From: an uncultured Planctomycetia bacterium
GTDB taxonomy: Bacteria; Omnitrophota; Gorgyraeia; Gorgyraeales; Gorgyraeaceae
NCBI GenBank assembly: GCA_964652265.1
Contig: CAZZAL010000005.1
Span: 1 to 57,124 of the forward strand
Reading direction: 5' to 3'
Length of the DNA: 57,124 nucleotides
Notes under the pieces: model-generated
The model's input: only the letters and a program-made list of their open reading frames with translations
Told to the model about the DNA's origin: nothing
Database searches by the model: none
Position numbers and translations under genes: made by a program
Part shown: positions 4,452-6,467 of the stretch, in pieces
Layout: each line of letters opens with the position of its first letter
Position numbering within the stretch: the stretch's first letter is position 1

Positions 4452-4529
4452 TGGTCGGGGCAGCAGGACTCGAACCTGCGACCCCCTGCTCCCAAAGCAG
4501 GTGCTCTAGCCAAACTGAGCCATGCCCCG
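4452..4529 (-). tRNA. tRNA-Pro (anticodon TGG), CCA encoded
   Basis: Reverse complement is CGGGGCATGGCTCAGTTTGGCTAGAGCACCTGCTTTGGGAGCAGGGGGTCGCAGGTTCGAGTCCTGCTGCCCCGACCA. Anticodon loop TTTGGGA. T arm GCAGG-TTCGAGT-CCTGC. Confidence 0.9.
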
Positions 4530-4569
4530 AATGTCCTATAATTCTAACAAGCTCGCCCTAAAAAGTCAA
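4477..4569. repeat. 93-bp direct repeat, copy A (part of the intact tRNA-Pro gene plus its promoter)
   Basis: Base-for-base identical, by eye, to 6375-6467 (offset 1898 bp). It covers tRNA-Pro nt 1-53, a 40-nt upstream region and the last 12 nt of the rdgB reading frame. Confidence 0.9.
4541..4569 (-). promoter_or_regulatory. sigma70-like promoter of tRNA-Pro
   Basis: Minus strand reads TTGACT (4569-4564), a 17-nt spacer, then TAGAAT (4546-4541). The mature tRNA 5' end lies 12 nt downstream. Confidence 0.6.
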
Positions 4570-4592
4570 TATAAGGTATTTCTCAAAAATTT

Positions 4593-5441
4593 TTATTTCA
4601 AAATCTTATTAAACCGCTCGAACGCCTTATCAAGATCAAAATGCTCCCCTAATCTAATAACAGGCATTAAGTCTGTCTCTATCTGCTTATAAAGATCTTT
4701 TATGGCTTTCTCGCTCAAACCAAAGTTATGTTTGAAATCACCTTTATAGCCTTCGTCTTTGAGTTTCTTTTCAAATATGGTCAGGAATTTCTTATCGTGA
4801 AAATCAAACTTTACCTCTGCTATATACCATAAATCATAATAATCGCGAATCGCTAAATCCCTTCTTGTAATCGCTGCCTTAAGTTTTTCTGCTACTGCTT
4901 CGTTTAGAGAAAGTGATAATATTTTGTTAGCTGGGACTAGGTCTTTTCCTGTGAACGGATCTTTGTAAAAGTGCTTAACTGTATTATAGACGGGCTCATC
5001 TATAGGCCTCTGCCTCAAAGAAATCTCGATATTAATACTTCCTTCTTTCTCTGTAATAAAAGATGGGTATGAAATATAAAATATATATTGCGTAGAATTA
5101 TTAAACCCTTCGCCTTTGGGCTTTTCGCTTTTTAATCCCAAATGTTCTAGAAAGCATGGCATGTTTTCTCTGACAGGCTTGACAGCCTTTGATCTTTTAG
5201 AACGCGAATTTAATTCTTCCTTGCCATAATAAGTAAAATCTAAATCCTCACTCAACCTGCGATAATTAAGATGCATTTTATTCAAAAGTGTGCCACCTTT
5301 AAAAACAAGATTCTTGCTGAGATGAGACTCAATGCTATTCAAAATAACAGTCAAGTAATAATCTTTTTCAACAATCTCTGACCTGAAATTATACTGCTTC
5401 GCTGTTAAAGATATTATTTCCTTAAGGGTCCCCCTATCCAT
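4593..5441 (-). CDS. abiEii: AbiEii/AbiGii-family nucleotidyltransferase toxin (DUF1814)
   Basis: 282 aa with an ATG start. Family signatures EKDYYL, FKGGTLLNK and RLSEDLDF are present. It overlaps the upstream antitoxin gene by 8 nt. Confidence 0.85.
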   Translation of the reverse strand: MDRGTLKEIISLTAKQYNFRSEIVEKDYYLTVILNSIESHLSKNLVFKGGTLLNKMHLNYRRLSEDLDFTYYGKEELNSRSKRSKAVKPVRENMPCFLEHLGLKSEKPKGEGFNNSTQYIFYISYPSFITEKEGSINIEISLRQRPIDEPVYNTVKHFYKDPFTGKDLVPANKILSLSLNEAVAEKLKAAITRRDLAIRDYYDLWYIAEVKFDFHDKKFLTIFEKKLKDEGYKGDFKHNFGLSEKAIKDLYKQIETDLMPVIRLGEHFDLDKAFERFNKILK

Positions 5442-6243
5442 TAATAATAATCCTCCAGTCTTTATTAACCTTGCCTCTCCGAGAAGGATTCGATGGATTC
5501 AATATAATGTAGCTTGTCTTATTGCCTATTGTCTTTTGTAATTTTTTCAGACTGGACTTTTTATAATTTAATTTTTCCAAAAAAAATCCTGTTCTTTTTC
5601 TGACTGAAACCACAGGAAAAACGATAAGGTATCTTATAAACTTCTCAATATCAATCTTGTTTAAATTATCCTTCAATACCCGTTCAACGCTCCCAAAAGA
5701 ACCTATGGGATTATAGATAAAATCTACCAAAGTCCGCTCTTTATCGCTTATACACACAAACTCTTCCTCTATCTTCACTCTTTTAATACCAAAGTACTTT
5801 CTCTTATCTATCCTGACAGCTTTATACCTTACGTTGCCTATCGTTTTTGTACAGGATTTTTTCGTATTTAAAACAAACATTGTTTGAGGAACCTGCTCAG
5901 TAAACCCCCAATAGTTATACATAGTAAAATATCCGATATAATAGGGTGTGTCACCCATCCAAAGCTTGGCTGTAATGTATTCATTAGGAACCCATAATTG
6001 ATTCGGGGCTTTTATAGGGACAACAATATACTTACCTCTTTCAATTTGAATAAGTCGGTCTTTTCTTGTGAGTTTATCCAGAATATTAGCTGCTTTTTTT
6101 GAACTGCCAAAAAGCTTTTTAGTATATTCCTTTGTGATAAGCTTCTGCTTCTCAAAATCAGACCGTGAAATTAAATAGATCTCGTCTTTAGAAAGGCCTC
6201 TATAATTAGGCTTTGTTTTTGTCATTGTTTTCCATTGCTCCAA
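5434..6243 (-). CDS. abiEi: AbiEi-family type IV antitoxin / transcriptional regulator
   Basis: 269-aa maximal ORF. N-terminal winged-helix-like segment (AANILDKLTRKDRLIQIERGKYIVVP) plus a C-terminal AbiEi-type domain. Translationally coupled to abiEii. The ORF opens with TTG (6243); the first in-frame ATG is at 6225. Confidence 0.75.
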   Translation of the reverse strand: MEQWKTMTKTKPNYRGLSKDEIYLISRSDFEKQKLITKEYTKKLFGSSKKAANILDKLTRKDRLIQIERGKYIVVPIKAPNQLWVPNEYITAKLWMGDTPYYIGYFTMYNYWGFTEQVPQTMFVLNTKKSCTKTIGNVRYKAVRIDKRKYFGIKRVKIEEEFVCISDKERTLVDFIYNPIGSFGSVERVLKDNLNKIDIEKFIRYLIVFPVVSVRKRTGFFLEKLNYKKSSLKKLQKTIGNKTSYIILNPSNPSRRGKVNKDWRIIING

Positions 6244-6331
6244 TTCTTAATTTTTAAGAATTACTTAAACGATATACAATAGAATTATACACGCTATATC
6301 GCTTTATGTCAAATATATTTTAAGTAATTCT
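6242..6331. promoter_or_regulatory. inverted-repeat operator candidates around the abiE promoter
   Basis: One palindrome is AATTCTTAA-ttt-TTAAGAATT (6242-6262). A second 13-bp inverted repeat, AGAATTACTTAAA (6257-6269) / TTTAAGTAATTCT (6319-6331), brackets the -35/-10 elements. Confidence 0.5.
6284..6312 (-). promoter_or_regulatory. consensus sigma70 promoter of abiEi-abiEii
   Basis: Minus strand reads TTGACA (6312-6307), a 17-nt spacer, then TATAAT (6289-6284). Confidence 0.7.
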
Positions 6332-6374
6332 AATGGAATTTAATAGGCAAGTAAATAAAACTATTTATCCCTCG

Positions 6375-6427
6375 TGCGACCCCCTGCTCCCAAAGCAGGT
6401 GCTCTAGCCAAACTGAGCCATGCCCCG
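6375..6427 (-). pseudogene. truncated tRNA-Pro copy (5' 53 nt only; lacks the 3' T-arm strand and the 3' acceptor strand)
   Basis: Identical to nt 1-53 of the tRNA-Pro at 4452-4529. Identity stops inside the T stem (GCA|GG). Confidence 0.85.
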
Positions 6428-6467
6428 AATGTCCTATAATTCTAACAAGCTCGCCCTAAAAAGTCAA
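6375..6467. repeat. 93-bp direct repeat, copy B (truncated tRNA-Pro plus duplicated promoter plus the real rdgB 3' end)
   Basis: Identical to 4477-4569. It includes the promoter copy TTGACT-17-TAGAAT at 6439-6467. Confidence 0.9.

Follow-up and report, generated by a model that had tools for sequence, protein, structure and literature searches.

The 57-kb stretch of DNA analysed here (the window) is placed in Candidatus Omnitrophota by the relatives of its RdgB protein. It contains a small islet, made of the gene pair abiEi-abiEii, located between rdgB and the gene of tRNA-Pro(UGG). The islet is bracketed by two direct repeats, at 4477-4569 and 6375-6467, which are identical at 93 of 93 nucleotides (nt) and lie 1898 nt apart, start to start. 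This is the sole long exact repeat within the window, and the chance expectation for such a 93-nt pair is about 1.7e-47. All features of the locus are on the minus strand; 4477-4569 is the downstream, functional copy (R2), and 6375-6467 is the truncated copy that lies beside rdgB (R1). Each repeat comprises the last 12 nt of rdgB, a promoter (TTGACT-17-TAGAAT, with a TG-extended -10 element) and nt 1-53 of tRNA-Pro(UGG), that is, 53 nt of the tRNA gene (4529 down to 4477 in R2) plus 40 nt upstream of it. The -35 hexamer of this promoter overlaps the last four rdgB codons and the TAG stop; the encoded C-terminus reads ...KRYVLTF*, and the final 12 nt of the gene, TTGACTTTTTAG, lie within R1. 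The opposite end of the repeat falls inside the T stem, of which three of the five nt of the 5' strand are included. A preliminary description of the locus had claimed this identity, this composition, and the continuation of the 4477-4569 copy alone into a complete tRNA; the alignment (100%, direct) and the open reading frame (ORF), promoter and tRNA calls all agree with it. As the repeat spans a gene boundary, both rdgB and a promoter-equipped tRNA-Pro gene remain intact, one on each side of the islet.

Within the cassette that separates the repeats, abiEi and abiEii are the only ORFs of note; abiEi comes first, and the two overlap by 8 nt. AbiEii matches PF08843 with 99.9 bits (cut-off 22.5), and its translation shows the motifs GG...SEDLDF and EKLKA. 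AbiEi matches PF09407 with 33.4 bits (cut-off 22.2) and, weakly, the N-terminal PF13338 (16.9 bits, cut-off 25); gene calls of 263 amino acids are also found for it in public assemblies. The abiE promoter lies between the arms of a 19-nt inverted repeat (6257-6275 / 6313-6331, 89% complementary) and overlaps them, an arrangement that may serve autoregulation by AbiEi, in line with what is known of AbiE systems. The abiEii stop is only 23 nt away from R2. The 1805 bp show neither an integrase or transposase nor terminal inverted repeats, and the Pfam and PADLOC matches are in line with the earlier claim that they hold just this pair with its own promoter and no recombinase. Judging from these matches, the genes appear to be an ordinary AbiE type IV toxin-antitoxin (abortive-infection) pair, with a predicted defence phenotype. 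The contrast in base composition that had been proposed as a check is marked: the G+C content of the cassette is 33.1%, compared to 42.1 +/- 2.1% for windows of the same size, which is the lowest value in the whole stretch and more than four standard deviations under the mean. The region is an inserted cassette of foreign composition, and we take it to be a horizontally acquired islet in an Omnitrophota chromosome. Coordinates are given in Table 1.

Table 1. Features of the rdgB/tRNA-Pro locus in the window
Feature	Position	Strand	Support or detail
rdgB (Ham1-family dITP/XTP pyrophosphatase), native upstream neighbour	6456..7055	-	ORF; PF01725 2.3e-61; synteny in relatives
R1, upstream repeat copy	6375..6467	-	Identical in at least 11 independent contigs
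R1, rdgB tail	6456..6467	-
R1, promoter	6467..6439	-
R1, truncated tRNA-Pro, nt 1-53	6427..6375	-	Cassette starts at next base
AbiE cassette, 1805 bp	4570..6374	-	Between R1 and R2; G+C 33.1%
abiE promoter/operator	6257..6331	-	TTGACA-17-TATAAT at 6312-6284, 12/12 consensus match
abiEi, predicted antitoxin/transcriptional regulator, 263 amino acids from ATG at 6225, 'type A'	5434..6225	-	PADLOC AbiEi 4.1e-50; PF09407
abiEii, predicted DUF1814 nucleotidyltransferase toxin, 282 amino acids	4593..5441	-	PF08843 2.8e-28; PADLOC AbiEii 1.8e-39
R2, downstream repeat copy: pseudo rdgB tail, promoter, tRNA-Pro nt 1-53, runs on into whole gene	4477..4569	-
R2, promoter	4569..4541	-
Functional tRNA-Pro(UGG) gene	4452..4529	-	ARAGORN; Rfam tRNA 67.2 bits

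The surroundings of the islet were then compared with loci of relatives, labelled here by L-numbers. The gene block xerC-queC-queE-fumA-fumB-rph-rdgB is common to several species, at 65-85% amino-acid identity. In four other Omnitrophota species (L016, L018, L021 and L022), rdgB is directly followed by tRNA-Pro, then by tRNA-Arg(UCU), a DUF748 gene and tRNA-His, with no AbiE cassette, so that the window carries an insertion relative to them. The empty sites that the preliminary description had proposed to look for do therefore exist, and its alternative, that all relatives would carry the same arrangement, does not hold. The rdgB genes of L018 and L019 end in the same TTGACTTTT(T)AG, overlapping the -35 hexamer.

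Other insertions are found at the same place. LysE and/or a histidine kinase with two response regulators lie between rdgB and tRNA-Pro in L017 (5582-7433), L020 (5609-9226) and L181 (6265-9119). A small GIY-YIG ORF of 89 amino acids lies between the tRNA-Pro promoter and the gene itself in L019 (5654-5927) and L185 (3140-3409), with 82% nucleotide identity, and a short motif, GGGGCATGCCCCGTTCCAAA, recurs near this insertion site in L018, L019 and L185. Classical duplications of the 3' part of tRNA-Pro are present just downstream of the gene in L019 (5988-6025 / 6159-6196) and L183 (1493-1543 / 1562-1610); the copies are 38-51 nt long and 87-92% identical, with almost nothing between them, and they resemble the scars left by integrase-mediated elements. 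In this clade the interval from rdgB to tRNA-Pro is a hotspot for insertions in general.

The AbiE pair itself was found directly upstream of tRNA-Pro, or on the rdgB side of the same locus, in L017, L180, L181, L183 and L184. The left junction, which follows tRNA nt 53 and reads (C/T)GA(G/A)GGATAAA, is common to the window, L017, L180 and L181: in the latter three, a 5' fragment of tRNA-Pro is followed by TGA(G/A)GGATAAAG and then by abiEi-abiEii, the counterpart in the window being CGAGGGATAAAT. A search for further occupied sites with the degenerate left arm GGTTACATGARGGATAAAGTTTAC returned L017 again and nothing else. The right junction, where CCTTATA meets TTGACTTTTT, is common to the window, L181 and L185, and a second, homologous type of promoter is present at this junction in L017, L180, L183 and L184. 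Since these junctions are shared, with decayed upstream copies in the other lineages, the duplication predates the species of the window.

Decay of the upstream copy is uneven, both between and within lineages. Over the first 53-54 nt, the number of differences between the upstream fragment and the functional tRNA gene is 0 in the window, 2 in L181, 5-6 in L180 and about 13 in L017. The decayed copies of L017, L180 and L181 agree in having TA at nt 50-51 and A at nt 53, the latter a position where T is present in the functional tRNA genes of L017 and L180. The upstream copy has a mosaic structure: in L180, the two copies differ at 1 of 71 positions over 28 upstream nt plus tRNA nt 1-43, and at 4-5 of 10 over nt 44-53, and the right-hand limit of repeat identity varies with the lineage (nt 43, 49 or 53). 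Outside the tRNA, the upstream copy matches the tRNA-Pro promoter of its own lineage, and not that of another, wherever the two copies can both be seen. Such a pattern would be expected of recombination or gene conversion between the copies, with the functional gene as the selected donor; it fits neither the uniform decay of a one-off duplication nor a fixed attachment site. A regulatory or decoy role for a truncated tRNA transcript was also considered, and appears unlikely since the truncated copy decays freely in L017.

Some copies of the islet are rearranged. In L185, L186 and L187, cassette DNA 97% identical to that of the window has a Ysc84-family gene as its left flank, with no upstream tRNA fragment, the homology beginning 6 nt inside the cassette edge of the window; on the right side come the rdgB-tail promoter, the GIY-YIG ORF and tRNA-Pro. 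An internal deletion of about 340 nt reduces the abiEii product to 163 amino acids in these loci (2582-3073 in L185), and abiEi is intact, so the toxin seems to have been inactivated and the antitoxin/regulator retained. In L181, only about 10 nt of the downstream copy are left, followed by LysE and the transposase pair of an IS21-family insertion sequence (IS), IstA/IstB. L188 has a promoter-to-stop unit 83% identical to that of the window, in unrelated flanks. The junctions of these rearranged copies are not site-specific.

A comparison of synonymous divergence (dS) argues for exchange of the genes between lineages. Between the window and L017, L180, L181 and L183, dS of abiEii is 0.30-0.58, against values from 1.1 up to saturation for six core genes and the DUF748 gene. 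For the close relative L184, dS is 0.25 for DUF748, 0.45 for abiEii and 0.32 for abiEi. We conclude that transfer between lineages, at least of the toxin gene, took place much later than the split of these lineages. Two types of abiEi, with about 36% amino-acid identity, are paired with one and the same abiEii clade; 'type A' is the variant of the window, L184 and L185. Relatives of abiEii at 60-75% identity are found in Aerophobetes, Elusimicrobia, Margulisiibacteriota, Actinomycetota and others. An ancient duplication decaying uniformly is ruled out by the dS contrast together with the mosaic pattern.

One might suspect that the repeats are an artefact of assembly, a cycle in the de Bruijn graph, due to a free circle or to a mixture of strains, having been wrongly threaded into the chromosome. 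The repeat does exceed many assembler k values, and some contigs break within it: those terminated by the repeat stop 30 or 31 nt (Logan) or 55 nt (L006) into it. These are k-mer breaks, as expected of short-k assemblies at a true repeat. Exact-protein look-ups in JGI, ENA and Logan assemblies of many samples returned the path rdgB-R1-abiEi-abiEii-R2-tRNA in at least 11 independent contigs, in all of which both copies are identical and 1898 bp apart. The same path thus comes from many independent assemblies of three pipelines, and the integrated form is present in other species with diverged repeats, which are impossible to mis-thread. We therefore regard an artefact as ruled out, its residual probability being negligible. 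All these contigs are at least 99.4% identical to the window in every compared segment, and represent one clonal population.

A second mobile sequence lies close by. The tRNA-Arg(UCU) gene (3702-4428, minus strand), 20 nt downstream of tRNA-Pro, is split within its anticodon by a 647-nt group I intron (3747-4393), whose ORF (3842-4267) is a PD-(D/E)XK homing-endonuclease gene (PF11645, 1e-27). This tRNA was missed by ARAGORN; its joined exons fold as tRNA-Arg(tct), and Rfam Intron_gpI is matched only weakly, with 24 bits. In nucleotides, the endonuclease gene is 96.5% identical to that of L021 (5923-6345), where core genes are about 70% identical, so that DNA has moved between species at this locus. 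L017 (9440-9633) has the intron without the endonuclease gene, and the tRNA-Arg genes of L016 (5764-5840) and L184 (1961-2037) are uninterrupted. The intron is a mobile one, spreading between species at the rdgB/tRNA-Pro-tRNA-Arg locus.

Direct repeats were also found close around the AbiE pair in several of 34 loci with related cassettes, each compared with itself; these neighbourhoods are repeat-rich, and no formal control for repeat density was made. A search for the cassette next to other tRNA 5' regions had been proposed as a check, and L143 has a related cassette at such a place. There an exact 45-nt repeat (83-127 / 4042-4086) consists of 3 upstream nt and nt 1-42 of tRNA-Thr(CGT), ending at the 3' side of the anticodon stem, and the whole tRNA lies downstream (4045-4120). 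The 3.96-kb island, with abiEi, abiEii, a 245-amino-acid ORF and two small ORFs, has the same mirrored geometry as in the window, and no integrase was found on the contig. In L145, an exact 24-nt repeat (3096-3119 / 4867-4890) is the start-codon region of the downstream ORF, its upstream copy being broken by a 20-nt palindrome. In L105 (150 nt, 83%) and L136 (347 nt, 93%), the repeats combine intergenic sequence with the 3' end of the gene upstream. Wherever the case is clear, the repeat reaches across a gene end, as would be expected if selection acts on Campbell-type insertions, since no other kind leaves an intact copy of each neighbour.

Two further observations were made on AbiE pairs. 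An unrelated pair, L190, occupies a contig of 1898 nt with identical 24-nt ends (1-24 / 1875-1898), the meaning of which is ambiguous. In L129 and L130, which come from other organisms, AbiE pairs lie among repeated copies of a palindromic element, about 90 nt long (GGGGACACAATACTTAATTAT ... ATAATTAAGTATTGTGTCCCC), with a copy ahead of successive ORFs, in a manner resembling a cassette array (128-223 / 2261-2356 in L129; 1329-1414, 3135-3219, 3530-3552 and 4449-4471 in L130).

We searched for an enzyme or a carrier of the islet. No integrase was found in or beside any of at least eight occupied loci of relatives, nor elsewhere in the window. The only recombinase of the window is a XerC-like gene beside topA (10411-11286); it was set aside as the cassette's recombinase, being syntenic and 76-85% identical in amino acids in all relatives, whether occupied or empty. 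IMG/VR viral contigs yielded no relatives of the cassette, and the best plasmid match was only 34% identical. A transposon with a long target duplication was rejected on three grounds: there is no transposase, there are no terminal inverted repeats, and the decay in L180 is strongly non-uniform. Unlike that of a transposon or IS, the length of the flanking repeat is not fixed (93 bp here, 24-347 bp in relatives). As regards an integron gene cassette, with its attC site and IntI/attI platform, no integrase was seen, and the abiEii stop is followed by R2 after only 23 nt. The rest of the 57 kb encodes core metabolism and translation. It includes DprA (PF02481, 4e-79; 13395-14324) and a type IV prepilin peptidase (16688-17455), which are compatible with DNA uptake and RecA loading and are not evidence of competence. 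Its last large ORF contains a 107-nt direct repeat, 72% identical, the copies being 291 nt apart (56158-56264 / 56449-56555), probably an internal protein repeat.

Taken together, these data indicate that the islet is old and has been exchanged horizontally, and is not a fresh insertion. We propose, with a probability of about 0.5, that it is a defence islet flanked by a target duplication, which is kept, homogenised and exchanged by host homologous recombination. The duplication that bounds it is one of the target itself: it begins with the last four codons of rdgB, takes in the tRNA-Pro promoter and ends at nt 53 of the tRNA. Host recombination would act on abiEii as well as on the conserved repeats of tRNA and promoter, the islet having no enzyme of its own, and the truncated tRNA copy would provide a conserved upstream homology arm at a place where identity of the flanking protein genes is no more than about 70%. 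The perfect identity over 93 bp would result from recent gene conversion, or from re-integration mediated by recombination within the species, and would not be the mark of the original insertion; the window may simply be the most recently homogenised case. Recombination of the RecA type between the repeats could excise the islet exactly, in the form of an 1898-bp circle. That the cassette may be lost cleanly had been suggested before, and the direct-repeat geometry supports it; the enzymes involved and the formation of a circle are what we infer.

Several points weigh against this proposal. Homologous recombination alone leaves the origin of the very first duplication, in which the cassette was joined to a piece of its target, unexplained. 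The fixed junction at nt 53, the exact repeats of L143 ending in or near the anticodon stem and the 3'-type duplications of L019 and L183 suggest that site-specific recombinases act on these tRNA genes. The own-type promoters of the three comparable lineages fit old residence with gene conversion, and give no positive sign that the whole islet was imported across species. The core-gene tree is star-like, with the occupied window, L181 and L017 in one loosely defined part of it, and does not separate one gain followed by losses from several gains. No circle and no tandem (cassette-repeat-cassette) junction was seen in contigs of the species, and no empty site within it, exact look-ups of RdgB, AbiEi and AbiEii giving only occupied or repeat-broken contigs. 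A scan of metagenome_contigs for the exact rdgB/repeat boundary gave no hit, this species being absent from that collection. Present-day mobility is thus unproven, the sampled population being clonal.

Other explanations were weighed against the same observations. In the main rival, the repeats could be the attachment sites attL and attR of a tyrosine or serine integrase acting in trans, from a co-resident integrative and conjugative element (ICE), a prophage or a tycheposon-like element, and recombining within tRNA-Pro; the islet would then resemble a cis-mobilizable element (CIME) or a satellite, and the element, not the chromosome, would supply the promoter and the 5' part of the tRNA. This is unlikely in our opinion, even though the junction at the same tRNA nucleotide in four lineages, the sharp 45-nt repeat of L143 and the exact 24-nt repeats hugging the two genes in L145 and L190 all speak for it, as do the duplications of L019 and L183, which imply that integrases use this gene in the clade. 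CIMEs that keep attL and attR without an integrase are a recognised class (PMC6323972), and targeting of a 5' end with replacement of the promoter is known for dusA and prfC (PMC8409611). However, neither an integrase at the occupied loci, nor an element in tandem, nor a viral or close plasmid relative was found. The block of identity moreover holds 40 nt of lineage-specific non-tRNA sequence and ends at a variable position, unlike a fixed attachment site, and repeats of 150-347 nt at 83-93% identity, as in relatives, are not att-like. Read literally, the preliminary description would have an autonomous circle of 1898 bp, made of the cassette and 93 bp, join an empty site through one Campbell crossover, so recently that the repeats are still identical. 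Its geometry stands, and fits exactly, with 0 mismatches in 93 bp; its novelty does not, as the junctions are not private to this genome but shared with L017, L180, L181 and L185, with decayed repeats in other species, so that the structure predates this genome. A 1.9-kb circle without a replication gene cannot persist, and contigs ending in the repeat are k-mer breaks rather than circle junctions, of which none was found. The 1898-nt contig of L190 is reminiscent of such a circle, and its 24-nt overlap does not match the assembler k (31 for Logan). We hold this literal model to be improbable.

Conversely, the islet might be a relic, created once by an ancient illegitimate or staggered-break insertion that made a long target duplication, and now immobile, inherited vertically and flanked by repeats without a role. 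The grouping of the occupied window, L181 and L017 in one part of the core tree would agree with this, as would the fact that no mobility is seen within the species. But L020, which falls in that part of the tree as well, has no close abiEii; the dS of abiEii is 2- to 5-fold or more below that of core genes and is out of step with host relatedness; the upstream copy has decayed in a mosaic fashion; and cassette DNA 97% identical occurs in a different left context. A fixed relic is therefore very improbable. Finally, the homing endonuclease may have assisted the spread of the islet. The intron lies about 170 bp from R2; breaks made in intron-less relatives would be repaired from an occupied donor with co-conversion of the flank, and a resected end pairing with the upstream tRNA-Pro copy would lead to the AbiE islet being copied in. 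The close identity of the endonuclease gene with that of L021 despite divergent core genes, and the occurrence of the intron among relatives with its endonuclease gene, without it or not at all, are in favour of such a role. No linkage is apparent, however: L021 has the endonuclease gene and no islet, L184 the islet and no intron, and co-conversion across about 2 kb of heterology is itself conjecture. Homing is a doubtful contributor to the recombination that we propose, rather than an exclusive alternative to it.

The repeats that span gene ends in other phyla hint that the pattern may be general. Tentatively, and with much less assurance than for the locus itself, one may envisage a class of recombinase-free, 'homology-addressed' AbiE cassettes that carry, copied from a neighbour gene, its expression signals and 5' end (or its 3' end). 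This copy might be a portable homology arm, by which host recombination or break repair would insert, delete or swap the cassette across species with its neighbours unharmed. Possible examples are the cassettes at tRNA-Pro in Omnitrophota, at tRNA-Thr in L143 and, in L145, at a protein gene's 5' end.

Defence systems cluster in hotspots and turn over quickly, and the movement of very small islets without a recombinase is usually left unexplained. The present locus offers a concrete and testable case: a 1.8-kb AbiE pair whose toxin has moved between species-level lineages, bounded by a copy of a tRNA and its promoter that recombines with the functional gene. If host recombination suffices, then in streamlined, uncultivated bacteria the conserved 5' regions of tRNAs could be landing pads of a universal kind for minimal defence cargo. 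If instead a trans-acting integrase is responsible, the locus would represent a tRNA site of mirrored polarity, at which the element supplies the promoter and the 5' half of the gene. The literature searched held no description of such 5'-side integration at tRNA genes, the searches giving nothing usable.

As for known systems, the cassette is, judged by its sequence, an AbiE type IV system: both families match, the antitoxin comes first, the genes overlap, and a consensus promoter lies within an inverted repeat. There is no difference in the genes; what differs is the host, an uncultivated Omnitrophota bacterium. With tRNA-gene islands and tycheposons (bioRxiv 10.1101/2020.12.28.424599) the locus shares the position beside a tRNA gene, a partial tRNA copy as a flank and empty sites in relatives, and tRNA-Pro(UGG), tRNA-Thr and tRNA-Arg(UCU) are also hotspot tRNAs in Prochlorococcus (same reference). 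It differs from them in that the promoter and the 5' 53 nt are duplicated rather than the 3' part, in its size of only 1.8 kb, in having no integrase in or near the element, and in the lineage-specific non-tRNA sequence of its repeat. CIMEs, as defined in ICEberg 2.0 (PMC6323972), likewise have direct repeats as possible attL and attR, no genes for integration or transfer, and cargo only. Here, however, no cognate ICE or integrative and mobilizable element was found in the window, related loci, viral contigs or plasmids, and the repeats behave as recombining homologous sequence.

The unusual polarity of the duplication deserves a last comparison. The preliminary description had stressed that it is the 5' part of the tRNA, with its promoter, that is duplicated, and this is correct; the polarity appears less odd once it is considered that a repeat spanning the gene boundary keeps both neighbours, and that there are precedents. 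The dusA-specific islands, and SXT in prfC, enter a gene at its 5' end and provide it with a new promoter (PMC8409611). As here, the copy at one end of the element gives the promoter and 5' part of the functional downstream gene, and a displaced 5' fragment is found at the far end. Those elements encode an integrase and a recombination directionality factor and target protein genes, whereas the present locus has a tRNA gene as its target and lacks a recombinase. The last parallel is the product of a Campbell single crossover, as obtained with a suicide plasmid, from which the locus differs in being a natural 1.8-kb defence cassette without a replication gene. In both, an insert lies between two copies of a homologous sequence, each copy is contiguous with one native flank, and the event is reversible between the copies; and, as in such a product, the 40 nt upstream of the tRNA are this lineage's own rdgB tail and promoter.

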